A DNA stretch of 64,000 nt, from positions 70,167-134,166 of the forward strand of contig DAOTWD010000003.1 in assembly GCA_034435975.1 (NCBI GenBank). The letters are read 5' to 3'. Below, piece after piece: positions 30,118 through 59,164 of the stretch. A program made the translations under genes and the position numbers. Every line of letters begins with the position of its first letter. Within the stretch, counting starts at the first letter, position 1. The stretch is from Chloroflexaceae bacterium (GTDB lineage Bacteria > Chloroflexota > Chloroflexia > Chloroflexales > Chloroflexaceae). A model generated the notes under the pieces. It searched no databases. It had not been told where the DNA came from and saw nothing but the letters and a program-made list of their open reading frames with translations.

Positions 30118-30150
30118 CACGGGTATGGCAGGGCGATGACATGGCGTACA

Positions 30151-30460: not shown

Positions 30461-30587
30461 ATGTCTCGTTGCAGTAATAGAGCGATGATTGGCTTTGATT
30501 AGGATACGGTCTTGAGACGAACCTGCTATGCTCCGGCACGTTATCACCATACATTGCGCTAAATATGATCCATTGGTAACAGGCGTG

Positions 30588-30596
30588 TGCTATAAT
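30588..30596 (+). promoter_or_regulatory. extended -10 promoter element TGCTATAAT upstream of cpaB
   Basis: TGnTATAAT read directly, 62 nt before the cpaB ATG. ATAATATGG is directly repeated 13 nt downstream. Confidence 0.35.
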
Positions 30597-30657
30597 ATGG
30601 CACATAATATGGCTGGTGGCCCGTTGGGTTCGCATTGATAAGGAAAGAAGCCTCATT

Positions 30658-31626: not shown

Positions 31627-31680
31627 CAGGCTGGTTGCGTCTATACGGAGAGCAACGCTGATGCTTGTACAATAGTAGCG

Positions 31681-31735
31681 ACGATCATGCATGCTTGAAC
31701 CGGTCAACTGCACTGCTTCAAGCATGCATGATCGT
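31681..31735. promoter_or_regulatory. 19-bp perfect inverted repeat with a 17-nt loop between cpaB and tadZ
   Basis: ACGATCATGCATGCTTGAA (31681-31699) and TTCAAGCATGCATGATCGT (31717-31735) are exact reverse complements. Confidence 0.5.
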
Positions 31736-31880
31736 ATACTCAATATGCATGTGGGGATTGTGCGCACCCGTTGCTTATATAGGGTAGTGTTGTGAATGCG
31801 AATGTAGATCGATTTTTTGCTTGAGCTATGCGCTGATTGGGTACGCAACTGCCGAACCATGCGAGATGAGGAGTTAATCC

Positions 31881-33161: not shown

Positions 33162-33190
33162 CAAGTTTTTCATATAGGCGGAGGCATAGT

Positions 33191-34600
33191 ATGTCGTTGT
33201 TGAAACGCATTGGTGGTGCAACTCCGGGAACAGAAGAGGCAACAGGGACACAACGTCCAGTGGTGACGAGTACTCTGCGTCGAGAAGAGGTGCGTCCATC
33301 TGGCTCTGGAAGTGGACGTGAACAGGAAGATACGTTCACTGAGATCAAGATGCGTGTGCAATCCAAGTTGATTAGTGAACTCGATCCTAACCTGGATCTT
33401 TCAAATACGACACGTGTGCGACGCCAGGTTGAGGAGGTCTTTAACTCGATCCTAGATGGCGAGAGCATTGTCTTGAGTCGTGCTGAGCGGGCGCGCATGT
33501 TTGAAGCTATAGCGGCTGACATTCTGGGGTATGGGCCATTGCAGCAATTTCTGGCAGATGATGAAATCAGTGAAATTATGGTGAATGGCCCACGGCAGAT
33601 CTATATTGAAAAGCGTGGTAAGCTGATCAAAACCGATGTCGTGTTTTATAATGACGACCATGTGTTGCGCATTATCGATCGGATTGTTGCTCCACTGGGG
33701 CGACGTATTGATGAGTCATCGCCGATGGTCGATGCACGTTTGCCCGATGGTAGTCGTGTCAATGCGATTATCCGCCCGTTGTCGCTGATCGGGCCCGTGA
33801 TCACGATCCGTAAATTTCGCAAGGAATCCTTTACGGTGGCCGATCTGGTGCGCTTTGGCACGTTCACTCAGGAGATGGTCGAGTTTCTCGCGGCATGTGT
33901 CCGTGCTCGGTTGAATATTGTCGTATCTGGTGGGACTGGCTCAGGCAAAACAACCACCCTGAATGTCCTTTCATCGTTTATCCCTGAAGATGAACGGATC
34001 ATCACCGTTGAAAACGCAGCGGAGTTACAATTACGCCAGGAACATGTGATAACACTCGAATCACGTCCGCCAAATATTGAAGGCCGTGGTGAAGTCACTA
34101 TTCGCGATCTGGTGATTAACTGTTTGCGTATGCGCCCGGAACGAATCGTGGTCGGTGAGTGTCGTGGCGGTGAAACGCTTGACATGCTCCAGGCAATGAA
34201 TACCGGCCACGATGGTTCTATGACTACGGTGCATGCGAACTCACCTCGTGATAGTATTGCCCGTATCGAGACAATGTGTTTGATGGCCGGGATGGATTTG
34301 CCCTCACGCGCTATTCGTGAACAGATTGCCGCAGCGGTTGATGTGATTGTGCAGCAGGGCCGTATGAAAGACGGTACGCGCAAAGTTACGGCGATCACCG
34401 AGGTGCAAGGCATGGAAGGTGATGTGGTGGTTCTACAGGACATCTTCGTGTTTGAGCAAACGGGCATTGATGAAAATGGTAAGATTGTAGGAACATTACG
34501 TCCAACCGGTGTCCGACCGAAGTTTGTTGAGAAGTTTGAGGCACTCAATATTTATCTACCACCAAATGTTTTTGGCTATTCGGCGGAACGGTTCTTCTAG
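33191..34600 (+). CDS. cpaF: CpaF/TadA type II/IV secretion-family pilus assembly ATPase
   Basis: Walker A VSGGTGSGKTTTLNVL, Asp box, Walker B RIVVGECRGGE, His box MNTGHDGSMTTVHAN. The ATG at 33191 follows GGAGG. Confidence 0.9.
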   Translation: MSLLKRIGGATPGTEEATGTQRPVVTSTLRREEVRPSGSGSGREQEDTFTEIKMRVQSKLISELDPNLDLSNTTRVRRQVEEVFNSILDGESIVLSRAERARMFEAIAADILGYGPLQQFLADDEISEIMVNGPRQIYIEKRGKLIKTDVVFYNDDHVLRIIDRIVAPLGRRIDESSPMVDARLPDGSRVNAIIRPLSLIGPVITIRKFRKESFTVADLVRFGTFTQEMVEFLAACVRARLNIVVSGGTGSGKTTTLNVLSSFIPEDERIITVENAAELQLRQEHVITLESRPPNIEGRGEVTIRDLVINCLRMRPERIVVGECRGGETLDMLQAMNTGHDGSMTTVHANSPRDSIARIETMCLMAGMDLPSRAIREQIAAAVDVIVQQGRMKDGTRKVTAITEVQGMEGDVVVLQDIFVFEQTGIDENGKIVGTLRPTGVRPKFVEKFEALNIYLPPNVFGYSAERFF

Positions 34601-34610
34601 GAATGGTGGA

Positions 34611-35597
34611 ATGCAAAACATGCTTGGGTCTGACATACTGCCATTTGCGGCAGCCGGGGTTGTCTTTCTCGTGATCATTCTCGTCTCCGGGGTAGTAGCC
34701 CGAACTATAGGACGTGATGATGTCTCGGATCGTCTCTCGCAGTATGCGAGGCGCGGTGATGCGGAAGCAGACGTTAATCCACAGCAGGTGTTTGCTCGTA
34801 TCGATGCAGTTGTCCGCAAGAGTGAACGGGGAAACAATCTGGCGCGCGACCTGGCACGTGCTGACCTGAAATGGAAGGTATCAGAGTTTATTGGCCTGAA
34901 GTTGCTGTCAGCCTTAGCCGGAGCGGGCATGGGTGCTTTTGTTGGACGTGCATCTCCACAGGCAATGTTGATCTCAGCACTGGTGGGTGCGGTGCTGCTA
35001 TCATTTGCGCCAAACGTCTACATGTCTATCCGTGCTAGTAGGCGCGTAAAGTCCTTTAATAACCAGTTGGGTGATACGATTATTTTAATGGCCAATGCTT
35101 TGCGTAGTGGGTATAGCTTTTTGCAGACCCTGGATATGGTCTCGAAAGAGGCTCCGCCGCCGGTCTCAACCGAGTTTAATCGCGTTGTCCAGGAGGTTGG
35201 TCTCGGCCGCACCACCGAGGAGGCACTCGCCAATCTGTTGCGTCGCGTACCATCAGATGACCTCGAATTGCTTATCACGGCAGTGAATATACAGCATGAA
35301 GTTGGAGGTAATCTGGCACAAATTCTGGATACCATTGGTCATACGATTCGTGAGCGGGTACGTATCAAGGGTGAAATCAAAACGTTGACGGCTCAGGGAC
35401 GTATTTCGGCCTATGTGATTACAGGGTTACCCGTTGCCCTGGCTATTTTTATTAGTGTCATCAATCCTGAGTATATGGCTCCTCTGTTTAGCTTTGGTAT
35501 GCCCCCCGAACACTGGTGTTGCTTACCGGTTACGGCAGCGTTCATGATTTTGATTGGTTATCTTGCCATTATGAAGATCGTTGATATTGAGGTGTGA
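34611..35597 (+). CDS. tadB: TadB-like type II secretion system F-domain membrane protein
   Basis: T2SSF-type region (LGDTIILMANALRSGYSFLQTLDMVSKEAPPPVSTEFNRVVQEVGLGRTTEEAL) flanked by TM segments. The ATG at 34611 lies just after the cpaF stop. Confidence 0.8.
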   Translation: MQNMLGSDILPFAAAGVVFLVIILVSGVVARTIGRDDVSDRLSQYARRGDAEADVNPQQVFARIDAVVRKSERGNNLARDLARADLKWKVSEFIGLKLLSALAGAGMGAFVGRASPQAMLISALVGAVLLSFAPNVYMSIRASRRVKSFNNQLGDTIILMANALRSGYSFLQTLDMVSKEAPPPVSTEFNRVVQEVGLGRTTEEALANLLRRVPSDDLELLITAVNIQHEVGGNLAQILDTIGHTIRERVRIKGEIKTLTAQGRISAYVITGLPVALAIFISVINPEYMAPLFSFGMPPEHWCCLPVTAAFMILIGYLAIMKIVDIEV

Positions 35598-35606
35598 GGT
35601 ACAGGT

Positions 35607-36533
35607 ATGAATCCTATGCTTATTTTGATCATCATGGGCATACTGTTTCTCTTCAGTGTCTTACTAATTATCTTTGGCCTGACCCGGTGGAAACAGGCCG
35701 ATATGATTAGTGATCGCCTCAACCAGTTTACCGAGCGCGTCATGACGCTCGAAGAACTGGAGTTGCAACAACCATTCCATCAACGTGTCCTCGTGCCAAT
35801 GGGACGTTCTATTTTAACAACGCTCGGTAACTATGGGCCGAAACAGAGTGCCGAACGGCTCAAGAGAAATCTCCAGCAAGCTGGCAACCCTGGAGGTATT
35901 ACGCCCACCATGTTTATCGGGTTGCGGGTCGCTCTGGCGATATTGCTCTGTGGTATTTTTGCCTTTGTCACCTTCACCACGATGGAGTTCTTGCGAGCAG
36001 TGTTGTACAGCGCCTTTGCGCTGGTTCTGGGGTATATGTTACCAGTGGTCTGGCTGGGGCGTCAGATTGCCAGGCGTAAACATAATATCGTTAAGGCTCT
36101 CCCTGATGCATTAGATCTGATAACCATCAGCGTTGAGGCTGGTCTGGCCTTTGACTCGGCTATCCAGCGGGTGACTGATAAGTGGGATGATGAACTGAGT
36201 AAAGAGCTTGCACGGGTATTGGCCGATATGCGCCTGGGGCGATCACGCCGTGAAGCTCTGCGCGATATGGCGACACGGACAGGAGTCGATGACGTGCAGA
36301 CCTTTGTAGCCGCCATTATTCAGGCCGATCAACTGGGTGTACCGTTATCCAAGATCCTGCGTATTCAATCCGATCAGTTGCGGATCCGGCGCCGTCAGCG
36401 GGCAGAAGAAGCAGCCCAGAAGGCACCGATCAAAATGCTCTTCCCTATGGTATTCTTGATCTTTCCGGCGCTGTTTGTGGTTATTCTTGGCCCGGCCGTA
36501 CCACGGATTATGTCGTCGCTGGGTAGTTTGTAG
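35607..36533 (+). CDS. tadC: TadC-like type II secretion system F-domain membrane protein
   Basis: T2SSF region (LPDALDLITISVEAGLAFDSAIQRVTDKWDDELSKELARVLADMRLGRSRREAL) with flanking TM helices. Confidence 0.8.
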   Translation: MNPMLILIIMGILFLFSVLLIIFGLTRWKQADMISDRLNQFTERVMTLEELELQQPFHQRVLVPMGRSILTTLGNYGPKQSAERLKRNLQQAGNPGGITPTMFIGLRVALAILLCGIFAFVTFTTMEFLRAVLYSAFALVLGYMLPVVWLGRQIARRKHNIVKALPDALDLITISVEAGLAFDSAIQRVTDKWDDELSKELARVLADMRLGRSRREALRDMATRTGVDDVQTFVAAIIQADQLGVPLSKILRIQSDQLRIRRRQRAEEAAQKAPIKMLFPMVFLIFPALFVVILGPAVPRIMSSLGSL

Positions 36534-47081: not shown

Positions 47082-47189
47082 GTATGCGATCCCGTGAGCA
47101 AATTGTTCCATCAGGCAATCGGTGTTGGGGTTGCATTGGGCGAGAACCGTGGGTATGCAATCCCGTGAGCAAATTGTTACATTAGGCAA
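47082..47189 (+). repeat. 37-bp direct repeat (3 mismatches, 71-nt offset) duplicating the recG start region
   Basis: GTATGCGATCCCGTGAGCAAATTGTTCCATCAGGCAA (47082-47118) versus GTATGCAATCCCGTGAGCAAATTGTTACATTAGGCAA (47153-47189). Confidence 0.9.
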
Positions 47190-49707
47190 AGTGCTGGCCG
47201 AGGAGCAGCGACGTGGCGGCGATGATGGGGCCGTGATCGATGGTTTGGACAGATTCATTGCTGCATGGCGCACCGAGTCCAACAGGGCACGCGAAATACC
47301 GGCGGTGCAACAGGCATTGGCATTGCTGGCAAACTATGCCCACCAGCCCGTTGATACGCGCCAGGTACATCTCGCACAGGCATTGGAGTTGCTTCGTACA
47401 CTTTTCAAGTCGTTGGAAACGACTACGGCAACAGCAAATGCAACCGGTTCATCGCCCCTGCTCCACACCTCCAGGCCGGTATCGCAACCAGATCCAGCGG
47501 GCGTAACTACACCTGAGCTTAGCCTGGATCTACCCGTAGAAAAGGTACCCGGCATCAATCGAAGCGCGGCACAGGCCTTTAAGCGGCTCAAGTTGCACAC
47601 GGTTGGCGATCTGCTGTATCATTTTCCGCATCGTTACGATGATTACACGTCGCAACAGTGCATTGCGAACCTGAGGGTAGGAGCTGTAGAGACGATCGTC
47701 GGCACCGTATGTGCCGTGCGTCCCTTTCGTACCAAAACCGGGCGTGACGGCGTGGAAATTCAGGTGGAAGATTCGAGTGGGCGCTTAAGAGTCGTCTTTT
47801 TTGGCGCACGCTGGCTGGTACAGCAGTTTAAGATCGGGCGAAAGGTGGTATTAAGCGGTAAAGTTACGTCCTATAACGGTATCTGTCAAATGACTGGCCC
47901 CGATTGGGAACCATATACGGCTGATCAACTGATTCATACTGGACGCCTGGTGCCAGTCCATCCATTGACAAAGGGATTACACGAGCGCAATGCTCGCAAA
48001 ATTCTGAAACAGGTTGTTGATCACGCTGCGCCCCTGGTACCGGAGTATTTGCCGCCTGTGGTACGTGAGCGAACAGGATTACTGCCACTGGGGACAGCGA
48101 TTGCGCAGATGCACTTCCCGGATAATCAGGAAATGCTGGCACGGGCACGGGATCGGCTTGGCTTCGATGAGTTTCTGTTTATTCAACTCGGTATCATCCA
48201 ACGACGGCAGCTCTGGCAAGGTGAAATGGGTTATGCATTTACCTGGCACCCTGAGGTTCATGCTGAGCTGCTCCAACAACTCCCGTTCAGGCTTACCGGT
48301 GCCCAGCAGCGAGCGCTAACCGAGATTTTTGCTGATGTACAACGCCCGGTGCCTATGGCACGTTTGCTCCAGGGCGATGTCGGCAGCGGCAAGACCGTCG
48401 TGGCGGCAGCGGTTCTCTTGCAGGCGATTGCCAATGGCTTGCAGGGAGCATTGATGGCACCGACCGAGATCCTGGCCGAGCAGCATTACAAGGGGCTACG
48501 ACAGCTCCTCAGCCGGGTGCGTGTACCGCGCACTGCTCACGCAGATGCTACCAATGCCGATCCTGATTGGAAAGGTACCACCGATGCCGACCATCTGGCA
48601 CGCCTGGATGAGATCAAGCGCTTGCTCGGTATGGTGCCCGAAGATGATCTGGATGGTGCAGGCGTGCGAGTGGCTTTGCTCACCGGTAGTCTGGGAACAA
48701 AGGAGCGGCGGCGTGTGCTTGAGGCGATTGCCAACGGCGATATTGATCTGGTGATCGGTACCCATGCGCTGATTACCGAGAGTGTCCAGTATCACAGCCT
48801 GGGTCTGGTGTGCATCGACGAGCAGCATCGGTTTGGCGTTGAGCAACGCCAGCGTCTGAAACAAAAAGGATTTAACCCACATATGCTGGTGATGACGGCC
48901 ACACCGATTCCACGCACGCTCACATTGACCCTCTATGGCGATCTCGATGTCTCGATACTCGATGAACTGCCGCCAGGTCGACAGGAAATCAAGACACGCT
49001 GGATCACCCGTGCCGAGCGTGACAAGGCCTATCGGCATGTACGGCGCGAAATTGAGAAAGGTCGCCAGGCCTTTGTGATCTGTCCACTGGTAGAAGAGAG
49101 CGAAAAAGTTGATCTACCATCAGCCGAGGAGATGTATACCTATCTGCAACACAGGGTATTTCCTGATCTTCGTATTGGGTTGATCCACGGGCGCTTATTG
49201 CCGCGTGAGAAAGATCTCGTGATGCGCGCCTTCCGTGATCATGAATTTGACATTCTGGTGGCAACTGCTGTGGTCGAGGTGGGTATTGACATACCAAACG
49301 CAACGACGATTATTATCGATGGTGCTGAGCGGTTTGGGTTGGCCCAGTTGCACCAGTTTCGCGGACGAGTTGGACGTGGAAGCCACCAAAGCTACTGTAT
49401 TCTGATTAGCGACCTCGATAACGAAGTGACGCAACAACGGTTAGAAGCCATGGAACTGACACACGACGGCTTCAAACTGGCCGAAATTGACCTGGAACTG
49501 CGTGGCCCCGGCGAGTTTCTGGGCAAACGTCAGAGTGGCACACCTGACCTGAAAGTAGCACGGCTGACCGATATACACCTTCTTCATCGTGCGCAACAGG
49601 AGGCGTGTATGATCCTGGAAGATGATCCGCAACTGGCACGACCAGAGCATGCGCTCCTGCGCACCAGAGTGCGTGAATTCTGGGAGCAGGCAGAAGGAGC
49701 GAGTTAG
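47155..49707 (+). CDS. recG: ATP-dependent DNA helicase RecG with a ~140-aa N-terminal extension
   Basis: Wedge-domain entry (VGDLLYHFPHRYDDY), helicase motif I GDVGSGKTVVAA, DEQHRFGV, TATPIPRTL, and RGRVGRGSHQSYC with a TRG-like end. Start uncertain (47122 or 47155). Confidence 0.9.
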   Translation: MQSREQIVTLGKVLAEEQRRGGDDGAVIDGLDRFIAAWRTESNRAREIPAVQQALALLANYAHQPVDTRQVHLAQALELLRTLFKSLETTTATANATGSSPLLHTSRPVSQPDPAGVTTPELSLDLPVEKVPGINRSAAQAFKRLKLHTVGDLLYHFPHRYDDYTSQQCIANLRVGAVETIVGTVCAVRPFRTKTGRDGVEIQVEDSSGRLRVVFFGARWLVQQFKIGRKVVLSGKVTSYNGICQMTGPDWEPYTADQLIHTGRLVPVHPLTKGLHERNARKILKQVVDHAAPLVPEYLPPVVRERTGLLPLGTAIAQMHFPDNQEMLARARDRLGFDEFLFIQLGIIQRRQLWQGEMGYAFTWHPEVHAELLQQLPFRLTGAQQRALTEIFADVQRPVPMARLLQGDVGSGKTVVAAAVLLQAIANGLQGALMAPTEILAEQHYKGLRQLLSRVRVPRTAHADATNADPDWKGTTDADHLARLDEIKRLLGMVPEDDLDGAGVRVALLTGSLGTKERRRVLEAIANGDIDLVIGTHALITESVQYHSLGLVCIDEQHRFGVEQRQRLKQKGFNPHMLVMTATPIPRTLTLTLYGDLDVSILDELPPGRQEIKTRWITRAERDKAYRHVRREIEKGRQAFVICPLVEESEKVDLPSAEEMYTYLQHRVFPDLRIGLIHGRLLPREKDLVMRAFRDHEFDILVATAVVEVGIDIPNATTIIIDGAERFGLAQLHQFRGRVGRGSHQSYCILISDLDNEVTQQRLEAMELTHDGFKLAEIDLELRGPGEFLGKRQSGTPDLKVARLTDIHLLHRAQQEACMILEDDPQLARPEHALLRTRVREFWEQAEGAS

Positions 49708-50142
49708 GATATGACACGTGGATAGGCTCTGGCTTGGGTACCATGGTCTCCATATTCCCTATGACGAAGTGGTCGCTATACTCTTTTATCGCTCGGTACT
49801 CGATACCCAGATTGTACGTACCTATGGCCGTGTACCAACCGGTGTATGTTCTGTGGTGGTGACCGTGTGCGGCCAATATTTGCCCGCGCGCTGGCATACG
49901 GAACAGTTGCGGCAGCGTTGGACACGCTGGCGTCTCAGTCAGGGCGAGTAAGGCTGCTTGATCAGGACTGACACGGCTGCTCAAACAACATGATATACCT
50001 GCAGCAGCACGGTACTTCGTTGTTGTTCTCTCCCAATATTCGCCGAAAGCGAACATCTGGAGAGAACGAAAGCGTTTTATGGCTACAGGTGAAAAAGATG
50101 TGGTGGCGCAACAAGTGCGTCAGTCTTGCATAGAAGACGGTT

Positions 50143-50616
50143 ATGGCAAAATATGAAATCACGGCTGTCACCATCATTCAAGCCGAGCCAGCCGATGTCT
50201 GGGCAGTTCTCGATAATTTTAGGAACTGGCCCGATTGGATGCCAGCAATGCAGAATCTCCAGGTGGAGTTACTGACACCGGGCCAGATCAAGCCGGGATA
50301 TCGCTTCCGTCTGCGTAATAAACTGGTACATGCCGACCTGGAAGTCACCACCTGCACCAGGCTGGAGCGGGCCACCCGGTTTCGCCTGAACCTGCCACCA
50401 TTGACCGGGGCCAATCAGTGTGTGCTGACGCCGCTGGAACACGGTGGGTATCGATTGGAACGCAAGGACTGGATTAACCTGCCTGGCCCGATCGCCACGT
50501 TTCTGAATGCTACCCAGCGCCAGCGATTGGAACAACTGGCTGCCGACTTTCTCTTATCACTGAAACGCACAGTAGAACAGCGAGGAAGCTTTGCTCAATC
50601 AGCAGCAACGGACTGA
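50143..50616 (+). CDS. SRPBCC (START/polyketide-cyclase-like) superfamily protein
   Basis: The N-terminus MAKYEITAVTIIQAEPADVWAVLDNFRNWPDWMP is typical of SRPBCC ligand-binding proteins. Confidence 0.7.
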   Translation: MAKYEITAVTIIQAEPADVWAVLDNFRNWPDWMPAMQNLQVELLTPGQIKPGYRFRLRNKLVHADLEVTTCTRLERATRFRLNLPPLTGANQCVLTPLEHGGYRLERKDWINLPGPIATFLNATQRQRLEQLAADFLLSLKRTVEQRGSFAQSAATD

Positions 50617-50839
50617 AACCTTACAACGTCTGGCGGCGATCATCAGGCAGAGCGGCATGCGAGTGCCAGTTGGAATTGCTCTGGATATAGTCCAACCATT
50701 TACTGTCCTTAGTAGTCAGGTCGCCCTATTTTGTCAGCCATTTACGATGGGTAGTAGTTTTGAACGTTATGTGCTGGTTCTGGCGGATGAGGCAAGTTGG
50801 GACGAATTACGTCGCTATTTAGGCCGTCCAGAATGTTGA
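50591..50839 (+). CDS. small hypothetical protein (weak call)
   Basis: 82-codon ORF overlapping the SRPBCC gene end by 26 nt. No recognisable motif or strong RBS. Kept only because of its position upstream of the 51060 operon. Confidence 0.3.
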   Translation: MLNQQQRTETLQRLAAIIRQSGMRVPVGIALDIVQPFTVLSSQVALFCQPFTMGSSFERYVLVLADEASWDELRRYLGRPEC

Positions 50840-50992: not shown

Positions 50993-51059
50993 GTGTAAAG
51001 TTATGTATCCCACCAGAGTTGCTTGAACCACACAATTGCGTCTGGCCTTAGGAGTGACT

Positions 51060-51857
51060 ATGCCTCTCCGTGGTCTCCCCGAAGAAACAATACTTGTCCT
51101 GATTGTTGCCCTGATTGTATTTATACTGACCGTATGGTATGACACCCGTATTCGTGCTGGTCATCGGCCATTCCGGCGACCACTCGCGGCGTTCGAGGTC
51201 ATCAGGGCTGCTCTTGGGCGTGGTGCAGAAACTGGTCGTGTGATACATCTCTCGCCTGGTGCCGGTACGGTGGGTAATCGTGCGACCACGGCTGAAACAG
51301 TAGCCGGGTTACTGGCGGCCGAGCGTATTGCCACTGAAGCGGCGTTCAACGGGGCGGCGATACTGGTCAGCAGCGGTGATGCCGTATCGCATCTAGCTCT
51401 CCGCGGCATTGTGCGCCAGGCCTATTATCGCGCAGGGCAAAGCCCGATCTTCAACGCAGCCAGTGTCCAATTGCTGGCCCATCAAGATTCGATGGCCTAC
51501 GCTGCTGGCGTTTCTGCACTCTATGCGCGCCAACGGTTGGAAGCCAGCCAGTTGATCGGCAGTCTGGGTCAGGAACTCCTCCTGGTGGGGGAAACCGGGG
51601 CGCAACATGATCTACCACAAATGATGGGGACGACCACACCTGCTGGTCTGCCGCTGATGTTCCTGAGTACACGTTCGGTATTGATTGGCGAAGAGGTGTT
51701 CGCCGCCGATGCGTATCTTGCAGCCGTGCCTGGCCCCCAGGCACGGTTGATGACCCAGGATTTCTTGCGCATGATTCTGATCCTGGTAGTTGTGCTGGGT
51801 ATCATCTACAGTCTGCTCCAGCCTGTTGTCGGGTTGCCACCATTACCAGGGATCTAA
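51060..51857 (+). CDS. bitopic membrane protein of unknown function (operon gene 1)
   Basis: The ATG at 51060 follows AGGAG. N-terminal TM (ILVLIVALIVFILTVWY) and C-terminal TM (MILILVVVLGIIYSLL) flank a ~200-aa Ala/Gly-rich domain. No family recognised. Confidence 0.7.
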   Translation: MPLRGLPEETILVLIVALIVFILTVWYDTRIRAGHRPFRRPLAAFEVIRAALGRGAETGRVIHLSPGAGTVGNRATTAETVAGLLAAERIATEAAFNGAAILVSSGDAVSHLALRGIVRQAYYRAGQSPIFNAASVQLLAHQDSMAYAAGVSALYARQRLEASQLIGSLGQELLLVGETGAQHDLPQMMGTTTPAGLPLMFLSTRSVLIGEEVFAADAYLAAVPGPQARLMTQDFLRMILILVVVLGIIYSLLQPVVGLPPLPGI

Positions 51858-51872
51858 CTGAGAAGGTGTTTG

Positions 51873-52514
51873 ATGTCTTTCGTGCGTGATCCAAAGCGCC
51901 TGATTGCAACTTTGATCGCGGGAGTGGTCGGTGCGATTGTGCTGGTAGATTTTGCGAGCGCAACCCTGACGGTCGGTCGGGTAGCGCGGTTGCTGGTCGG
52001 CTGGGCAGCAACCCTGACAGCACTGGCACTCCTGGTAGGGGTGATCAGTGTTACTCTTGCACACTTGCGGCGTGTCCTGACACGTGATGCGGATTGGGGC
52101 TATAGCCTGGTACTAGTGATGGGCATGCTAGGAGTGATAGTGGTCGGGGTTGCTGGTGCCCCTGGTTTAAATCTAGCTGAAGAACCAATTCGCCGGGTCT
52201 TTCGTGCGGTCTATGAACCCCTGGCGAGTAGCCTGCTGGCGCTCCTGGCGTTCTTCAGCTTAAGCGCAATTCTCAGGGTGTTCCGTGAACGTCATCCCCC
52301 GGCAGTGGTGATTGTGATGGTAGCTCTTCTGGTATTGATTATGCAATTACCACCTGTCCAAACACTGCCGTTTGTGTCTGAATCTTTGCAGTGGTTTAGT
52401 GATTATATTACCCTGGCTGGTACACGCGGCCTACTTCTGGGTAGCGCTATTGGCACTCTGGTTGCCAGTGTACGTGTTTTGTTGGGATTCGATCAACCCT
52501 ATCTTGATCGTTAG
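51873..52514 (+). CDS. polytopic membrane protein of unknown function (operon gene 2)
   Basis: 213 aa, 5-6 hydrophobic segments. Starts 13 nt after the gene 1 stop. Confidence 0.7.
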   Translation: MSFVRDPKRLIATLIAGVVGAIVLVDFASATLTVGRVARLLVGWAATLTALALLVGVISVTLAHLRRVLTRDADWGYSLVLVMGMLGVIVVGVAGAPGLNLAEEPIRRVFRAVYEPLASSLLALLAFFSLSAILRVFRERHPPAVVIVMVALLVLIMQLPPVQTLPFVSESLQWFSDYITLAGTRGLLLGSAIGTLVASVRVLLGFDQPYLDR

Positions 52515-52537
52515 TTATTGTAAGCTGTCTAGTGTTG

Positions 52538-52572
52538 AGACTATGGGCAAAGGCTGTGTTTGCCCATAGTCT
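52538..52572 (+). other. perfect 14-bp stem / 7-nt loop hairpin between operon genes 2 and 3
   Basis: AGACTATGGGCAAA (52538-52551) and TTTGCCCATAGTCT (52559-52572) are exact reverse complements. No U-tract follows. Confidence 0.5.
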
Positions 52573-52587
52573 ACGCCAGCAAAAAAT

Positions 52588-55500
52588 GTGATGGATCAAA
52601 AATCACGCCCATCGCCTGTACATACGAACGAAGATCAGCATCTGCCACCCTGGTTGCAAGGCGTCCCACTCCCGCCATGCCCACCTTCACGGCAGGCGCC
52701 GGTTGTGGACGCGGGCTTGAGTCTGACCTCGTCGCGCCCGATCGTGGCGGATACGGCGGTAGATCCTACAATACCTGACTGGTTGCGCGATCTGCAAAGT
52801 GAAGTTGGGGATATTGAAGACGAGCCAGGTGGGAGTGATGACGAACCAGACTGGCTCGCCAGTCTGGCGGCTGATGAGGTACTGCGTGTACCGGATGAGG
52901 CGGCGGATTTTCCTGCTGCGCCTCAGTCTGATCGTGTCACCGATCTGCCTGACTGGTTGCGAACGGATGCGAGCCCTGTTCGAGATGACATATCTGCCCG
53001 ATCTAGCAGTGATGACCTGCCCGACTGGTTACGAAGCGACGTGAGTTCGGCTCCAGACAATACACCTGCCAGTACGGCTAGTACTGATCTGCCCGACTGG
53101 TTACGAGGCGATGCGAGTTCTGCTCGACCAGAAACACTGGCCATGGCCAGCAGGGATGACTTGCCGGATTGGCTTCAATCAACACCCGCAGAATCGGCAA
53201 CCCCATCCGATCCTTTTCCATCACCATCGGCATCAGCGGATGAGCAGACAACACCACGGGTGCGTATGCCTGTTGGGGCAACTGATTGGCTGCGTAGCCT
53301 GGGAGAGGAATCAGATACCGACCAGGATCGGCCAGATACAGCCGAAGGGCCAATTGTTGAAGGGTTGCCTGAACAGGGCATTCCTGACTGGTTGCGTGAT
53401 GTTTCTCCAGACGAACTGGCCCGCGATATTGCCACTGCAGAGCCAGAACGACCGGTATACGATCTGCAACAACATGCTGATTCCTCTCCAGACCCTGTTC
53501 AAGCATCAGACTGGCTAGTCGAATCGGCAACGGCACTGTCGTCAATGGCACAGTCACCAGATTCAGATGCATGGGTTGAACCAGCGCTACCGGACTGGTT
53601 GCGTGATGTAAGCCTGGAGGAGCTGGAGCATGATATTGCAGCGGTGCAGTCTGATCTACCGGCACCACCACCTGTGTTGCCAGATGTGGAACCAGGATTA
53701 CCCGATTGGCTGCGCGATGTATCTCTCACAACCGATGAGGGCGATCCAGGGATAGCAGACAGCCCTGCTGCCCCGGTTGGTAGTCGGGATAGGCGATCTG
53801 CAGAACCGCCAGGCTGGCTGCTGACACCATCTGATGCGCAATCACCTGACTCGCCTGCGTCTGTTCCTGCATGGCTACTAGATGTGTCAGCGAGCCAATC
53901 TGAATCTGCTGTCCCTGAATGGTTACAGTCAACACCGACGGCCCGATCTGAAGCAGATGATTCACCACCTGCTTCAGATATTCCACCGTGGTTACAACGT
54001 GTTGAGCCTGAAGATGATCGCGATGCATCGGGATCAACACCGATTGCGGATTCGCCAGCAGCGCCACTCGGCAGTAAGGTGCCAGAGTGGTTACAGTCAT
54101 CTGATGTGGTACCATCTGTACCAGATCATCTGTCAGCAGGAGATGAGCATCAAGCGGCATTGCCTGAATGGTTACGTGGCAATGCACATGATGAATCGTT
54201 CTCAACTCAGGCGAAGCATACCGGTGTTGAGCCATCAGGAGTGTTGCCCGCCTGGTTGATAGATAATGCAGATCCTGAATCAGGTTCGTCTTTTCCAGGA
54301 AAAGCCCCTGATGAAACGATACCGGAGTGGTTACGTGCGGATCAATTATCAGTCAGTGAATCGGCAGAGAACCTGCCTGAATGGATGCGTAGTGATACAT
54401 CAACGGTAGAGTCTGGGGTGGCTCACGTTGATCCAACGATGCCTGACACATCTGATACGGATGTACCCTCCTGGTTGCGGGAAGAACCAGGAGGGCTGGC
54501 TTCCTCCGCTCCCCCTGGTATCGCTGATCTGCCACCGTGGATGATCGATGATGCGGACAGTCCTATACCGTCAGCAACAGCGGCGGGCGACAGCGGGTTA
54601 CCGGAATGGTTACGTGGTGCTGATGCAGATCCTAAAGTGCCTGCCTCACCTGCCACTTCGCCTATCGATGATGTTTCTGTCCCTGAGGATGTTGAGGATG
54701 TTCCATCCTGGTTAGCCACTGATGGGGCTGATGCAGATATTCCACCGTGGCTTCAACCCGAGACATCAACCACCGAACCGCCCGTGATAGCCGAAGCTCA
54801 GGGTGTAGCGCAACCGTCTTCCGGCGAGACCAGTGACTTTTTCGAGAGTATCGATCTACCTGACTGGTTACGCGAATCTGAGAATAAGGCCACGATCCAA
54901 TCTGGAGTATCGCGTGATATAGGCTGGTTGTCACGGTTGGGTGTCCAGGATGAAGCTAGTGATAGCGTAGCCATTGCGGCGGCACCGGTTCCCACAGTGT
55001 TGGAACCACCCACGTTTACGCGTAGCCCGGCCCGAGTCGAAGCAACCGCTTTGCTGCAGCGGCTAGCACAGCATCCTTTTCCAGAAGTAGCGCCGGTGAC
55101 AACTATGCCCAGGCCATCGCTCTGGCAGCGTATTGGTGTTGAACGGATACTCTATATTCTGCTGGCGTTGGCATTGCTGTTCAGTGTGATCATGCCCTCC
55201 ATTACGGCCTTCCTGGGAGCAACCAGTCCTACAACACCCGAAATTGCCCGGCTCGTGTCTACTATTGATCAGTTGACCGAAAATGATATAGCACTGGTGG
55301 CCTATGAATGGAATGCCCAACGTAGCGGTGAACTGCGTCCACTAGAACAGGCGTTGATCCAACATCTAATGGATCATCAAGTGCGTATGGTGGTACTCAG
55401 TACCAATCCGCAAGGTACCTTGCTCTCGTTTGATCTGCGTGACACCTTGCAAGCCGGAGGTTATCAAGGTCGCGGGTTCGACTATGTTTTGCTAGGATAT

Positions 55501-55992
55501 CGGCCGGGTGGCGAAATGGCACTGCGCAGTATGGCTCAGAATTTCTATGAGACGCTGCAATCAGATTTCCAGGGATTGGATGCGACTCGCGGTGGTCTGG
55601 CCATTGACCCTGATACACGTGAGTGGTTTTTGAATACGCTCGCGGATCTGTCGTTGATTGTGGTTATGGCTGACCAGCCACAGGACGTGCAGGGGTGGAT
55701 CGAACAGATTCATACCAGCGTAGAAGATGTGCCGCTTGTCTTCCTATTACCGTTCGAAACGGCTCCTGTGGTGCAACCCTACCTACGCGATCCGCAAGTC
55801 TTTCAACTGGTAGGGAAGCAAGATGCGATTTATTATCAAGCTATGCGTACCAACGACCAGCACAACATAACAATGACCTATGCCAGTGGTCAGCAACATT
55901 TTGCGGTACTGGTGTTTGTGATTCTGGTTTTCGTTGGGGGTATGGTCAGTGTCTTGCTGCATTCCAGACCTTCGAGGGGGAACAACACATGA
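52588..55992 (+). CDS. 1134-aa acidic protein: ~830-aa cytoplasmic low-complexity region with about 28 P-x-W-L motifs, then TM - ~280-aa domain - TM (operon gene 3)
   Basis: Motifs read from the translation: LPDWLRD/S/G/T, IPDWLRD, VPEWLQS, LPEWLRG, IPPWLQR and others. No signal peptide. TM ILYILLALALLFSVIMPSI and terminal TM FAVLVFVILVFVGGMVSVLL. Confidence 0.8.
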   Translation: MMDQKSRPSPVHTNEDQHLPPWLQGVPLPPCPPSRQAPVVDAGLSLTSSRPIVADTAVDPTIPDWLRDLQSEVGDIEDEPGGSDDEPDWLASLAADEVLRVPDEAADFPAAPQSDRVTDLPDWLRTDASPVRDDISARSSSDDLPDWLRSDVSSAPDNTPASTASTDLPDWLRGDASSARPETLAMASRDDLPDWLQSTPAESATPSDPFPSPSASADEQTTPRVRMPVGATDWLRSLGEESDTDQDRPDTAEGPIVEGLPEQGIPDWLRDVSPDELARDIATAEPERPVYDLQQHADSSPDPVQASDWLVESATALSSMAQSPDSDAWVEPALPDWLRDVSLEELEHDIAAVQSDLPAPPPVLPDVEPGLPDWLRDVSLTTDEGDPGIADSPAAPVGSRDRRSAEPPGWLLTPSDAQSPDSPASVPAWLLDVSASQSESAVPEWLQSTPTARSEADDSPPASDIPPWLQRVEPEDDRDASGSTPIADSPAAPLGSKVPEWLQSSDVVPSVPDHLSAGDEHQAALPEWLRGNAHDESFSTQAKHTGVEPSGVLPAWLIDNADPESGSSFPGKAPDETIPEWLRADQLSVSESAENLPEWMRSDTSTVESGVAHVDPTMPDTSDTDVPSWLREEPGGLASSAPPGIADLPPWMIDDADSPIPSATAAGDSGLPEWLRGADADPKVPASPATSPIDDVSVPEDVEDVPSWLATDGADADIPPWLQPETSTTEPPVIAEAQGVAQPSSGETSDFFESIDLPDWLRESENKATIQSGVSRDIGWLSRLGVQDEASDSVAIAAAPVPTVLEPPTFTRSPARVEATALLQRLAQHPFPEVAPVTTMPRPSLWQRIGVERILYILLALALLFSVIMPSITAFLGATSPTTPEIARLVSTIDQLTENDIALVAYEWNAQRSGELRPLEQALIQHLMDHQVRMVVLSTNPQGTLLSFDLRDTLQAGGYQGRGFDYVLLGYRPGGEMALRSMAQNFYETLQSDFQGLDATRGGLAIDPDTREWFLNTLADLSLIVVMADQPQDVQGWIEQIHTSVEDVPLVFLLPFETAPVVQPYLRDPQVFQLVGKQDAIYYQAMRTNDQHNITMTYASGQQHFAVLVFVILVFVGGMVSVLLHSRPSRGNNT

Positions 55993-56630
55993 TCGAGATG
56001 ATCATCAAAATTGCAGGTGTTGTGTTGACCCTGTGTGTATTGAGTCGCATGATCTGGGTGCATAACAATCCCCTGTTTCGCTTTGCGCAATACCTGTTTG
56101 TTGGTGTCTCACTGGGGTATGCATGCGTTGTTTTCTATCATCAAGTACTCTGGCCAGCCGTGTCTCGGGTATCAAGTAATCTTAATAACACGGGAATAGT
56201 AGGATTCTACCTGGTACCGTTTCTCCTGGGATTGTTGCTTCTACCGCGCATTGCCGGTCAGCAACAATGGTCATGGTTGGCAAATATTCCACTGGCACTC
56301 CTGTTTGGGGTCGGAACTGCGCTGGCGCTGGGCGGTGTGTTAGTCGGAACGCTGCTCCCCCAGGTATTGGATACAATACGGGGTACTGATGGTTCCCTCG
56401 CGCAGGTATTGGGATCAGTATTCCTGGCTATCGGGGTTATGCTAACCTTGAGTTACTTTTTCTTTACAGTTCCCTCTGATAGCGGTGCAGGGCGTTTTCT
56501 TGCAGTAAACGCCCGCGCTGGCTACTGGTTATTGATGGTGGCCTTTGGGTTCTTTTTTGCCGGAGCACTACGTACCTATCTGGCAGCATTGATCGAACGG
56601 TTACATTATCTTATTGATTGGAACGTATAA
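55989..56630 (+). CDS. polytopic membrane protein of unknown function (operon gene 4)
   Basis: The ATG at 55989 overlaps the gene 3 stop (ATGA). 213 aa, about 6 TM segments. The tracked longer ORF (from 55695) overlaps gene 3 and is rejected. Confidence 0.7.
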   Translation: MIEMIIKIAGVVLTLCVLSRMIWVHNNPLFRFAQYLFVGVSLGYACVVFYHQVLWPAVSRVSSNLNNTGIVGFYLVPFLLGLLLLPRIAGQQQWSWLANIPLALLFGVGTALALGGVLVGTLLPQVLDTIRGTDGSLAQVLGSVFLAIGVMLTLSYFFFTVPSDSGAGRFLAVNARAGYWLLMVAFGFFFAGALRTYLAALIERLHYLIDWNV

Positions 56631-56692: not shown

Positions 56693-59164
56693 ATGACCGA
56701 TTCTTCGCCTATCTATGACAAAAAGATGATGCCTGACACGCTCTGTTCTATACTTGTTGCCGAGATTGGCAGTCTCACCACCCGCGTTACCCTCGTAGAT
56801 GAGGTTGATGGTGAGCGCCGTATGATTGGCCGCGCTGAGGTGTTTAGCAGTATCGAGCCACCGCATCAGCATGCATTTATGGCGGTGCTGGAGGGGGCTG
56901 TGCAAATAGCTCAGGCGACTGGTCGGCAGTTATTACATGAAGGTCAGTTACTGATGCCCCAGAACCGAGAGCGCGATGGCATTGATCACGTTGTTTTTGT
57001 CAGCAGTGCTGCTGGTGATCTGGCTCTGGTGATTACCGCTATTGCCGGCGATGTCTCAGCCCGTAGTGCCCTCCATGCCAGTCGTTGCACCTATACCAGT
57101 CTGCTCCAGATCGTAACGCTTGATGATGCGATGATGCGCGTCAGTGGTGATGGGAGCACTTCATGGATTGTACGGCAGATCCAATCCATGCTGGCAAAAA
57201 GTCCAGATGTCATATTGATGGCAGGTGGTCTGGAAGGTGGTGCTACAGAGGCGCTAGGACGCCTGGCGCATATTGTTGGCTTGACGAATTTGCGGACGGC
57301 TGTCGATACCAGTGGTCAACAGCGTCAGGATGTGTCCCCCCGCCCGGTTCTTTTTGCCGGCAATAGTGCTGCCAGTGGGCACGTGACGGAAGTACTGGCC
57401 GGTCGAGCGGAAATACTTATTGTCGATAATGTTCGCCCAACCCTGGACATAGAGCGGTTAGAACCAGCCCGTCAGGAAATCATACGGTTATACGATGAAC
57501 GAATTCTGAATCGGTTGCCAGGGATACCAACATTGCGGCGACTCAGTAGTACAAGTGTACCGATCACCACCGTGTGTAACGTTGAGGGGCTGATCACACG
57601 GTTTGTGGCCGAGCAATATGAACGCCAGGTGCTAACATTGGATGTCGGCTCAGCCAGTAGTAGTGCGTTTCTTGCTAGCCCGGGACATTATCATCCCGTG
57701 GTGCTGGGAAATTGTGGCACGGGTTATGGCTTGACCACGCTTTTGAAAGAACGGGGTATTCCTAATATTGCTCGCTGGCTCCCTTTCCCGATCACCGAGG
57801 AGGAACTTACTCAGTGGTTGCTGAATAAACTGTTGCGCCCCCACCTGATACCAACTTCTCGTGAGGATGTGTATATTGAACAGGCCGTTACGCGTGAGGC
57901 CCTAACGCTCGTGTTAGATGCGCTGCGTGATGAATGCCCGACACCAGAGTATGATCTGGTGTTCGCCGGCGGAGGTGTCCTCTCTCATGTGCCCCATCCC
58001 GGCATGGCTGTCTTGATGTTGCTTGATGTGCTCCCGGCTGTAGCGCAAAACACTCTGGCGCTGGATCTCCATCTTGATACCTTTAGTCTCCTGTCAGTCT
58101 GCGGTGCGCTGGCGCGGTTTGATCCGGATGCTGCAGTGACAGTTTTTGAACGTGATCTATGGCACAATACTCCGCTGGCAACCTGTGTGGTACTTGCTGG
58201 CGAGGGGTCATCTGATACCGTGGCAGTTGAGGCAGAACTGGTAAGCCGTGGCCGATCGCAGCACGTAGCGGTGCGACATGGACAGGTCGCCCGATTACGG
58301 CTCGATCCGGGTAATCGAGGACAACTGATACTCCGCCCGGCACCAGGTGTGCATATTGGGCACAACGAGCCGGGCGCAGAGGTGCGCTCGGATCTGGCAG
58401 CACTGAAGGGTAGTGTCCTGGGTATTATTATTGATGCCCGTGGCCGTCCGTTGCAGTTACCGATTGATGAGACACGCCGCTGTGCGCAGATCTGGGAGTG
58501 GCTGGTAGCATTGGGAGTGGAATATGATCAAAGTCCCTATGTTAATATGCCATTGTCAATCCCAGAGGTTATTGATGTTGACCATAATGTAGATACACCA
58601 GCCACTGATATAGAACGTGATCGTTCCACCCAGACGTCTAAAGCAACGCGGCGGTGGTGGGGCAGACGGGGTAGAACTCCAGATACTGCTGCTGTACCAC
58701 CGGAACCGTCTATCGCAACACCGGCAACCAGCACGGAGCCGTCAGGGCCATTGACCGAGGTACCGCTCGCAGGAGTGCAAGCAGAGCAGGTAGCGGGCAG
58801 CGGCATGCCAGTGGTTCCTGATGTGGCTGTGATCCAGAGTGATCCCGTTAGTACGGTCGAATCGGTACCGGCCCCAGATGCACCGGCGGTACAGGCGATC
58901 AAGCCCGGTTCACGCATTTCCCTGAGCGACCTGGCCGCCCGGAGCGAAGACCTGCCAGCAACTCCCAGATCGCCCGCACTCAAGCCCGGTTCACGCATTT
59001 CCTTGAGCGACCTGGCCGCCCAGGAACTGACGCAGTCATCAGAGTCAGTATCTCCCTCCGGTTCAGATGAACACGAACCAGATGCCATTCAAAGCGATCT
59101 GGCAAAACTACGCCAGTCGGTTTCCGCCCCCAGGAAGGGTGGCTGGTTTGGACGTAAGAAATAG
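56693..59164 (+). CDS. GlmL/MutL-family (ASKHA, actin-fold) ATPase-like protein with a disordered Pro/Ala/Ser-rich tail (operon gene 5)
   Basis: N-terminal phosphate-1-like ILVAEIGSLTTRVTLVD and the VFVSSAAGDLAL segment resemble the GlmL (glutamate mutase accessory) family as I recall it. The tail has a duplicated KPGSRISLSDLAA and ends KGGWFGRKK. Start uncertain (56618 or 56693). Confidence 0.6.
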   Translation: MTDSSPIYDKKMMPDTLCSILVAEIGSLTTRVTLVDEVDGERRMIGRAEVFSSIEPPHQHAFMAVLEGAVQIAQATGRQLLHEGQLLMPQNRERDGIDHVVFVSSAAGDLALVITAIAGDVSARSALHASRCTYTSLLQIVTLDDAMMRVSGDGSTSWIVRQIQSMLAKSPDVILMAGGLEGGATEALGRLAHIVGLTNLRTAVDTSGQQRQDVSPRPVLFAGNSAASGHVTEVLAGRAEILIVDNVRPTLDIERLEPARQEIIRLYDERILNRLPGIPTLRRLSSTSVPITTVCNVEGLITRFVAEQYERQVLTLDVGSASSSAFLASPGHYHPVVLGNCGTGYGLTTLLKERGIPNIARWLPFPITEEELTQWLLNKLLRPHLIPTSREDVYIEQAVTREALTLVLDALRDECPTPEYDLVFAGGGVLSHVPHPGMAVLMLLDVLPAVAQNTLALDLHLDTFSLLSVCGALARFDPDAAVTVFERDLWHNTPLATCVVLAGEGSSDTVAVEAELVSRGRSQHVAVRHGQVARLRLDPGNRGQLILRPAPGVHIGHNEPGAEVRSDLAALKGSVLGIIIDARGRPLQLPIDETRRCAQIWEWLVALGVEYDQSPYVNMPLSIPEVIDVDHNVDTPATDIERDRSTQTSKATRRWWGRRGRTPDTAAVPPEPSIATPATSTEPSGPLTEVPLAGVQAEQVAGSGMPVVPDVAVIQSDPVSTVESVPAPDAPAVQAIKPGSRISLSDLAARSEDLPATPRSPALKPGSRISLSDLAAQELTQSSESVSPSGSDEHEPDAIQSDLAKLRQSVSAPRKGGWFGRKK
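58899..59021 (+). repeat. 42-bp direct repeat (1 mismatch) with 81-bp (27-codon) period inside the tail of operon gene 5
   Basis: TCAAGCCCGGTTCACGCATTTCC[C/T]TGAGCGACCTGGCCGCCC at 58899-58940 and 58980-59021. Confidence 0.9.

Follow-up and report, generated by a model that had tools for sequence, protein, structure and literature searches.

The window analysed here is a stretch of 64,000 nucleotides from a Chloroflexaceae bacterium (assembly GCA_034435975.1, contig DAOTWD010000003.1, positions 70,167 to 134,166 of the forward strand; coordinates below are counted from its first nucleotide). It contains a cassette of five co-directional, tightly spaced genes, and the third of these encodes a membrane protein, here called the array protein, whose long N-terminal arm carries 28 copies of one short motif, each centred on a Trp residue. 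Judged from sequence, these sites probably form an array that has been selected for multivalent protein docking, and the motif resembles the C-terminal docking peptide of FtsZ. The array gene and the features of its product, with residues given in amino acids (aa), are as follows.

52588..55992, + strand: array protein gene (cassette gene 3), an open reading frame of 1134 aa
52588..55002, + strand: arm, aa 1-805, with predicted intrinsic disorder and predicted cytoplasmic location, strongly acidic (AlphaFold2, charge-hydropathy, net charge)
52642..54939, + strand: motif array, 28 Trp-centred sites from W22 to W780, consensus [DE]-[LIV]-P-[DEPAS]-W-[LM]-[RQ]-[DE]
52936..53223, + strand: four 72-nt (24-aa) units with W123, W147, W171 and W195, a local expansion
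54835..54957, + strand: membrane-proximal invariant motif pair, FFESIDLPDWLRE (W760) and DIGWLSRLG (W780), both Trp residues present in 78 of 78 orthologues
55027..55071, + strand: conserved juxtamembrane helix, aa 814-828, consensus RSxAQxEAxALLxRL (AlphaFold2, confidence score about 80)
55141..55218, + strand: transmembrane (TM) helix 1, aa 852-877, with Arg N-terminal to the helix (TM prediction, AlphaFold2)
55237..55848, + strand: Rossmann-like alpha/beta domain, aa 884-1087 (AlphaFold2, confidence score 85-96)
55867..55962, + strand: C-terminal TM helix, aa 1094-1125, followed by a basic tail (TM prediction, AlphaFold2)

A conserved tryptophan motif in a predicted disordered arm

The array protein has 33 Trp residues, 29 of them within its first 800 residues, and 28 of these 29 stand in one common context, the exception being W329 ('SDAWVEP'). 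The first-pass annotation of this DNA had described about 28 copies, with nearly every Trp in the same surroundings, and the recount upholds that description. The pattern P-x-W-[LM] occurs at 25 sites in the arm, against a mean of 0.35 and a maximum of 4 in 20,000 composition-preserving shuffles of residues 1-800. The strict form [LIVM]-P-x-W-[LM]-[RQK] is found at 19 sites; elsewhere in the six frames of the window it appears once, inside a 61-codon junk frame. Examples of the array motifs are SSDDLPDWLRSDVS and FFESIDLPDWLRESE, and three sites are degenerate (TDWLRS, SDWLVE and IGWLSR). The spacers are variable and rich in P, D, S, A and E, as had been noted (arm composition: P 13.6, D 12.3, S 12.0, A 11.2 and E 7.0%), but the length of 15-45 residues assigned to them does not hold, as successive Trp residues lie 13-73 residues apart (median 26). 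The arm is likewise poor in Lys, although this is not special to it, since Lys accounts for only 0-3.1% in ten other open reading frames of the window.

To define the homologues of the array protein we used a search that returned 881 proteins, the best 120 of which were examined for motif copies. A shorter query, 95 aa with four repeats, retrieved none. These 120 are 30-76% identical to the query, come from Chloroflexales, are annotated as 'hypothetical proteins' and carry 8-34 copies of P-x-W-[LMIV] each. The concern that homologues might lack the Trp-Leu core was not borne out. A logo built from 2771 Trp sites in 105 orthologues reads D/E at -4, L/V/I at -3, P (75%) at -2, D/A/S/E at -1, W at 0, L (83%) at +1, R/Q (59%) at +2 and D/E at +3. 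In an alignment of 78 orthologues, which also served for the AlphaFold2 prediction and all positional conservation given here, W234, W651, W674, W760 and W780 are invariant and about 20 further Trp columns are at least 90% conserved, whereas the spacer columns have no consensus; Phe occupies 2 of ~1700 cells in the Trp columns. Spacing across the orthologues has a mode of 20-24 residues and a minimum of 12, and extends to more than 100. Because the motif positions are kept in orthologues of 30-40% identity while the spacers drift, the motif is under selection, and this pattern is the mark that short linear motifs held by selection leave in a disordered chain that otherwise drifts. When one genome per species was scanned, 174 matches to the array protein were confirmed. 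The best 80 are all from Chloroflexales, namely Chloroflexus, Roseiflexus, Oscillochloris, Chloroploca, Viridilinea and Kouleothrix/Ribeiella, and the 1.24 Mb of DNA that flanks the Chloroflexales loci yielded no other open reading frame with at least three motifs.

At the DNA level there is little sign of recent amplification. Some units had been taken for recent DNA duplications, and this stands only loosely, for one or two of them: of the four Trp in the local expansion, W123 and W195 occur in 3 of 78 orthologues and were added lineage-specifically, whereas W147 and W171 are old, being shared by 71-74 of the 78. Tandem Repeats Finder reported no DNA repeat in the array region, and nucleotide identity among the three 72-nt units at 52936-53151 reaches only 58-69%, so that a DNA tandem repeat or recent amplification was rejected as an account of the array, the similarity being merely motif-sized. 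Codon use inside the motif is varied (four Pro, five Leu and four Arg codons). With the codons free to vary in this way, the repeat is maintained at the level of the protein.

The array gene has two possible starts, GTG at 52588 or ATG at 52591. The NCBI gene call (P0001, GCA_053537235.1) begins instead at V40 (52705), which is 39 residues too late and loses the first conserved motif LPPWLQGVPLPP, a motif that is conserved N-terminally in the 78 orthologues (consensus N-terminus LPPWLRxVPLPPRP). The N-terminus MMDQKSRPSPVHTNEDQ has no hydrophobic stretch, in agreement with the earlier statement that a signal peptide is absent.

The presumed disorder of the arm was returned by both methods used. 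AlphaFold2 gives residues 1-805 a predicted local distance difference test score (pLDDT) below 50, with only helical turns of 3-9 residues that start at D(-1)/W(0) of the D-W-L sites, and in the Uversky charge-hydropathy plot the mean hydropathy of the arm (H=0.436) lies under the order-disorder boundary (0.466), while the C-terminal domain of the same protein falls on the folded side. The net charge of the arm is -117, cations being few (36 Arg and 6 Lys). Arg residues occur before TM helix 1 and after TM helix 2, both in the array protein and in the orthologue consensus, which terminates in RRR. By the positive-inside rule, this arrangement predicts a cytoplasmic arm and an alpha/beta domain on the outside. 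Orthologues from Anaerolineae, described below, begin with a double zinc ribbon, which provides an independent argument for the same orientation. Together with the missing signal peptide, these observations support the cytoplasmic location that was first proposed for the arm, and by the same topology the alpha/beta domain would be extracytoplasmic.

We found no known family for this protein. Pfam and NCBIfam gave zero families for the whole 1134 residues at E up to 0.1, PADLOC and PHROGs gave no match, and a known domain or repeat identity was rejected on these empty results. A Foldseek search of the alpha/beta domain against the PDB produced generic Rossmann-like neighbours only, none with E <1e-3, and a specific fold name for the domain was dropped (E >3e-3). 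A PDB sequence search with the C-terminal domain of the array protein, with the DUF6754 protein encoded by cassette gene 1 and with the ATPase encoded by cassette gene 5 likewise gave no match. Homology between the C-terminal domain and DUF6754 was also considered and rejected (BLASTP and hhalign negative, probabilities <1%).

Resemblance to the FtsZ tail and to other motif systems

The C-terminal peptide of FtsZ docks FtsZ onto FtsA, ZipA, SepF, MinC and SlmA. The array consensus [DE]-[LIV]-P-x-W-L-[RQ] equals the FtsZ peptide D-I-P-x-F-L-R/K at all positions except for the change of F to W, a resemblance that the first-pass annotation had missed, and the two share the pattern D-[LIV]-P-x-aromatic-L-[RK] within a disordered chain. 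The E. coli tail is DYLDIPAFLRKQAD, the FtsZ of Oscillochloris trichoides terminates in ...DDLDIPPFLRNRNRGK / ...SSSDDLDIPPFLRNRNRGK, and DDLDIPPFLRNR is an FtsZ tail peptide from a carrier of the array. The ftsZ gene of O. trichoides is frameshifted in the draft genome, and its real C-terminus is encoded in another frame.

We scored FtsZ with a log-odds matrix made from 2770 array sites with the Trp column omitted. The C-terminal peptide was the top-scoring 9-mer in FtsZ from E. coli as well as from O. trichoides, at 10.4-12.0 bits compared with a median of 12.6 bits for true array sites; only 27-62 of 560,051 background 9-mers (~1e-4) score as high. A length of 8 residues and invariant D, P and F have been reported for the FtsZ peptide (PMC9939409), and its residues I374 and L378, which are critical for binding of ZipA, FtsA and MinC (PMC4117426), are the counterparts of positions -3 and +1 in the array. 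Single FtsZ tail peptides bind with affinities of 20-81 μM, compared with 0.21 μM for full-length FtsZ (PMC4117426), so that weak single peptides give strong binding via multivalency, and the same logic is proposed here for the 25-copy array. There are also clear differences. The array presents about 25 copies per chain rather than one per subunit, it is carried by a membrane protein that has no FtsZ domain and is not a tubulin homologue, and its motifs are internal and acidic on both flanks, whereas the FtsZ peptide lies at the C-terminus, ahead of a basic variable region.

Multivalent short motifs have well-known eukaryotic counterparts. The endocytic adaptors epsin, Eps15 and AP180 carry arrays of DPW, DPF and NPF motifs in disordered arms. 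As in the array protein, many aromatic motifs of 3-6 residues lie in a long disordered arm on a membrane-binding module, and low affinity per contact is turned into avidity by multivalency. The first-pass annotation had drawn this parallel, and it stands as an analogy of architecture only: the array does not have the D-P-[FW]/N-P-F core, its order P-[DE]-W-L (Pro at -2, Asp/Glu at -1) being the reverse, and we know of no bacterial description of the receptor domains concerned (AP2 appendage, EH). In the 'Ago-hook' of GW182/TNRC6, Trp residues insert into pockets of a folded partner, and the disordered region is likewise conserved essentially only at Trp and its immediate neighbours. Unlike these proteins, the array is bacterial, its Trp residues are flanked by L-P-x and L-R and not by Gly/Ser, and its motif is longer and more specific. 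The array also departs from the W-acidic motif [LM]-x-W-[DE] of kinesin light chain, position +1 being Leu in 83-89% of sites, and from the LIR/AIM motif [WFY]-x-x-[LIV], position +3 being D, S, G, T or E.

Among bacterial systems, the pairs PilN-PilM and FtsN-FtsA are similar in that a short cytoplasmic peptide of a membrane protein is bound by an actin-fold ATPase encoded nearby, and PilM and FtsA are structural neighbours of the cassette ATPase. They differ in having one peptide per protein and other sequence motifs, and the cassette ATPase is a member of the GlmL/MutL clade (PF13941) and of neither the FtsA nor the PilM family. In magnetotactic bacteria the acidic, repetitive, disordered protein MamJ is linked to the actin-fold protein MamK, and the likeness lies in just this genetic linkage of such a protein to an actin-fold partner. 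MamJ, unlike the array protein, has neither an array of Trp motifs nor a TM-domain-TM module, and MamK is a true filament-forming actin, whereas the cassette ATPase is at most a putative one.

No description of the motif, the array protein family or the cassette was found in the papers and profile libraries searched, and the literature on DUF6754, PF13941, short linear motifs in Chloroflexi, actin-like proteins of Chloroflexus and mimics of the FtsZ tail held nothing relevant. A new cyanobacterial family of actin-like proteins (PMC12645912) was considered and found to be unrelated to the cassette. Already known are multivalent short motifs in disordered scaffolds, from eukaryotes, and the docking of the single-copy FtsZ tail as a peptide in a groove. 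New are a 25-fold, positionally conserved array in bacteria, the constant set of operon genes that accompanies it and its recurrence in another protein family.

The cassette, its ATPase and the motif in other proteins

The cassette comprises, in order, genes for a DUF6754 protein, a protein with about 6 TM segments, the array protein, a protein with 6-7 TM segments and an ATPase with a MutL/GlmL-like ASKHA fold. Apart from the array gene, its features are as follows.

51036..51857, + strand: cassette gene 1, DUF6754 protein with the layout TM, soluble domain of ~200 aa, TM (PF20539, E=2.5e-38)
51870..52514, + strand: cassette gene 2, polytopic membrane protein of 214 aa with ~6 TM segments, no Pfam or NCBIfam family
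55989..56630, + strand: cassette gene 4, polytopic membrane protein of ~212 aa, its start overlapping the stop codon of the array gene
56693..59164, + strand: cassette gene 5, MutL/GlmL-like ASKHA-fold ATPase of 823 aa (Pfam PF13941)
58901..59020, + strand: two copies of the conserved ATPase tail motif KPGSRISLSDLAA
59096..59161, + strand: conserved extreme C-terminus of the ATPase, DLAKLRQSVSAPRKGGWFGRKK, basic and aromatic

The product of gene 1, for which the NCBI start is at 51060, matches DUF6754 (PF20539) with 132.2 bits against a cutoff of 27. The domain is also encoded in the cassettes of Kouleothrix, Chloroflexaceae and Anaerolineae, and its gene precedes the array gene in every locus with sufficient flank, Anaerolineae included. 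Gene 2 keeps its place in the order at 51-73% identity (52 loci), and gene 4 is present in 83 of 84 loci; their identities to the counterparts in a diverged Anaerolineae locus (L089) are 34% and 35%, respectively. The two membrane proteins of ~213 aa are not recognizable paralogues of each other, as BLASTP and hhalign were negative (probabilities <1%). Gene order is the same in all of the more than 50 loci with enough flank.

The ATPase matches PF13941 over profile positions 1-450 of 450 (E=1.1e-55, 189.7 bits against a cutoff of 27). Its AlphaFold2 model has a mean pLDDT of 80.5, residues 15-635 being folded and residues 641-823 forming a disordered tail, and the Foldseek neighbours of the protein are acetone carboxylase, sugar kinases, PilM with a PilN peptide, FtsA, Hsp70 and diol dehydratase reactivase. 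It falls far below the cutoffs of the GlmL equivalogs (55.6 against 475 for NF040745 and 67.9 against 600 for NF040744), and no mutase genes were found in any cassette locus examined, from which we conclude that the ATPase is not an accessory protein of glutamate mutase. The motif in its tail reads G[KR]RISLSDLAAQE across orthologues. The consensus of the extreme C-terminus in 60 orthologues is DLAxLRQTVExPKKRGxFGRKK, where the x before FGRKK is L or W (PKKRG[LW]FGRKK), and this end of the protein is likely a membrane-targeting peptide. In Chloroflexus, the ATPase tail has a KPRQGWFGRKK unit in up to three copies. The ATPase helix 'IWEWLVALG' was considered as a mimic of the motif in cis and was dropped, because it is integral to the folded domain (pLDDT ~96).

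Among 1.84 billion representative proteins, 508 matched a profile of the motif (31 columns, from 27 motif windows) at E <=1e-3. About half of the best 150 of these lack the orthologous C-terminal domain and fall into two groups. Proteins of the first combine a zinc ribbon with the array, one of them being named 'zinc-ribbon domain-containing protein [Anaerolineae bacterium]', and they are diverged orthologues from the cassette (L089 1150-4974, L090 6310-8395) that retain the module of TM helix, alpha/beta domain and TM helix (hidden Markov model E=2e-18). In both loci the zinc-ribbon array gene comes after genes for DUF6754 and a membrane protein of ~210 aa, and in L089 it is followed by genes for a membrane protein of ~215 aa and for MutL. 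These diverged cassettes thus keep the gene order, with all four partner genes 29-35% identical to those of the window, and the cassette is, by order and identity, conserved from Chloroflexales to Anaerolineae, i.e. in two classes of Chloroflexota. In L086 and L089, the MutL gene is followed by an additional gene of ~360 aa. Two motif types, [IV]PDWL[RQK]xLGTGAL and EDWLGALRAAAP, alternate in the array of the protein P0384.

The second group, which the first-pass annotation had also missed, consists of proteins of 800-1500 aa in which the array stands between tetratricopeptide repeats (TPR) or is followed by C-terminal TPRs; some are named 'tetratricopeptide repeat protein [Anaerolineae/Chloroflexota bacterium]'. 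They share the logo acidic-L-P-D-W-L-[RQK]-E, and TPR domains are classical peptide-binding domains. Four loci of this kind were examined.

L085 8001-11219: TPR-array locus
L087 8001-10532: TPR-array locus
L088 8001-10955: TPR-array locus
L091 6001-8544: TPR-array locus

None of the four has the cassette near the TPR-array gene. In all four, ndk lies downstream of this gene; it is the next gene in three of the loci, and in L087 one short gene intervenes. Two of the loci have uvrA upstream. The motif search also scored P0274, a GH1-like protein of 971 aa with 12 identical 'LGNIPEWLTTT' units, which looks like a tandem repeat or an assembly artefact that is unrelated to the motif class. The best PDB match of the motif profile is a lone 'EVPEWLRE' in a human KIF13B construct (2cow, E=0.15), and this is probably due to chance.

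The 73-nt gap between gene 2 and the array gene contains a perfect 13-bp inverted repeat, GACTATGGGCAAA(ggctgtg)TTTGCCCATAGTC, at 52538-52571. The RNA hairpin predicted for 52525-52585 folds at -27.7 kcal/mol (z-score -5.0), lacks a T-run downstream and could be an element for processing or attenuation within the operon. No further copy of the inverted repeat was found in the window, so that a repeated element was rejected, and a scan of the operon for promoters and terminators gave counts not above those in shuffled sequence. Upstream of the cassette (window 47122-50839) are RecG, an SRPBCC (Polyketide_cyc2) protein and an open reading frame of 82 aa, an arrangement that recurs in a subset of Chloroflexaceae loci (SRPBCC in 26, RecG in 17). 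In Oscillochloris trichoides DG6 (L029 4659-8300), ftsQ, ftsA and ftsZ are directly upstream of the cassette. Further away, the window contains a protein of 1183 aa that consists of nearly nothing but TPRs and has no Trp-motif array (14850-18401), and a Tad/Flp-type pilus cluster (24376-36533) that is outside the conserved neighbourhood of the cassette and includes the following genes.

24376-27075: TadE/G-like VWA protein
31881-33161: response-regulator-ParA (TadZ-like) gene
33047-34600: CpaF-type T2SSE ATPase

Models for the array and their implications

Taking the data together, our explanation is that the arm serves as a multivalent docking track for a receptor with a peptide groove, either the cassette ATPase or the binders of the FtsZ tail, and we hold the case for this explanation as a whole to be evenly balanced. 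Each motif would adopt a short strand followed by a helical turn and dock into a hydrophobic groove of a folded receptor, to which it would present the triad L/I/V(-3), W(0) and L(+1). Single contacts would be weak, and avidity would come from many receptor subunits, most plausibly in an oligomer or filament lying on the membrane, so that the arm would work in the manner of the tails lined up along an FtsZ protofilament, but within a single chain. By a rough estimate, an acidic coil spacer of ~24 residues would span ~4-5 nm, near the subunit repeat of an actin-fold or FtsZ filament. A groove of the kind that binds FtsZ tails is a tentative possibility, less likely than not, suggested by the sequence match. 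The first candidate for the receptor is the cassette ASKHA ATPase, a member of a fold class that includes the peptide binders FtsA and PilM, and its basic-aromatic C-terminal tail would place it at the membrane; that it is the direct partner of the array we regard as rather doubtful. The second candidate is FtsA or SepF, for which the array protein might be a recruiter or a decoy during septation of the multicellular filaments, and the TPR domains of the TPR-array family would be further candidates where they are present. The earlier picture of a multivalent array in a disordered scaffold is supported in its conservation and disorder, while binding and multivalency are features that we infer.

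Several observations weigh against this explanation. A profile that includes the Trp column failed to retrieve FtsZ from the PDB sequences. The aromatic residue of the array is Trp and almost never Phe, which is the residue in FtsZ. This constancy could reflect a different, Trp-specific pocket, or it may be an effect of the mutational path, since the change from W to F needs two base changes. The comparison with FtsZ was made post hoc, the related arrays P0290 and P0314 have S, T or A at +2 and not R/Q, and ftsQAZ adjoins the cassette in only one of 84-90 loci, that of O. trichoides, so that ftsZ adjacency fails as a general rule. The motif occurs in TPR proteins that are unlinked to the cassette, and the receptor therefore need not be a cassette protein. 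Characterized GlmL/MutL members are annotated as accessory proteins of mutases rather than as peptide-binding scaffolds, and the partner of the array is throughout one that we infer.

A more specific proposal is that the arm is a membrane-anchored, 25-valent mimic of the FtsZ tail that recruits, templates or sequesters FtsA, SepF or the ATPase, with the cassette controlling the formation or architecture of the septum. The TPR-array proteins encoded next to ndk would then be soluble members of the same network of motifs and receptors. We consider this proposal unlikely as it stands.

We also weighed accounts in which the motifs are not docking sites in this sense, and each is less consistent with the charge of the arm, the positional conservation around Trp, the topology or the structure prediction. 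It is quite unlikely that the arm is a self-associating scaffold of stickers and spacers, with Trp and Arg as stickers in a membrane-attached condensate or gel that might include the TPR-array proteins. Stickers spaced by ~24 residues of low complexity, a W and R pair inside each motif, a second, soluble family with the same array and the description of the FtsZ tail itself in terms of stickers and spacers (PMC9939409) all speak for such a scaffold, yet a net charge of -117 with so few cations disfavours homotypic condensation, the strict Pro(-2), aliphatic(-3) and Leu(+1) are typical of a structured docking epitope, and Tyr or Phe almost never replace Trp, although generic stickers would tolerate both. 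Very improbable is a role of the motifs as interfacial membrane anchors, in which Trp and Leu would enter the inner leaflet and the arm would be a sensor of curvature or lipid domains, or a fence. Trp, Leu and Arg are the classic interfacial residues, the protein is tethered to the membrane and the cassette is rich in membrane proteins; however, the Asp/Glu flanks and the extreme acidity would lead to repulsion by anionic bacterial membranes, three hydrophobic residues in every 25 are weak for partitioning, and the same array occurs in TPR-array proteins, in which no membrane segment was noted.

Scarcely credible is an extracytoplasmic arm whose Trp repeats bind polysaccharide of the cell wall in the manner of choline-binding or GW-type repeats: Trp-rich repeats often bind carbohydrate, and the envelopes of Chloroflexales are complex and multilayered (PMC7332563), but the absent signal peptide, the Arg residues before TM1 and after TM2, the double zinc ribbon (a cytoplasmic type of domain) of the Anaerolineae orthologues and the failure of AlphaFold2 to give the arm a fold all contradict it. 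A folded repeat such as a solenoid, raised with the original description as a reason for doubt and here supposed to have been missed by structure prediction and profile libraries, finds some encouragement in the regular motif and its modal spacing of 20-24 residues but deserves as little credence, given spacings from 12 to more than 100, unconserved spacers rich in Pro, Ser, Asp and Ala, a pLDDT below 50 despite an alignment of 78 sequences and empty Pfam and NCBIfam results.

Eukaryotic cells use arrays of short linear motifs in disordered scaffolds as a central principle of their organization, and to our knowledge such arrays have barely been documented in bacteria. The conserved array, the conserved operon and the reuse of the motif in a second family suggest an undescribed motif-receptor system that spans at least two classes of Chloroflexota, and the match to the docking peptide of FtsZ makes this system directly testable. 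As a natural case of avidity engineering, it would build on an interaction between a peptide and a groove that is already known in bacteria. Filamentous Chloroflexota have no homologues of the cyanobacterial septal-junction genes (PMC7332563), and the system could reveal how division and the septum are organized in these multicellular filamentous bacteria, whose cell biology is poorly known.

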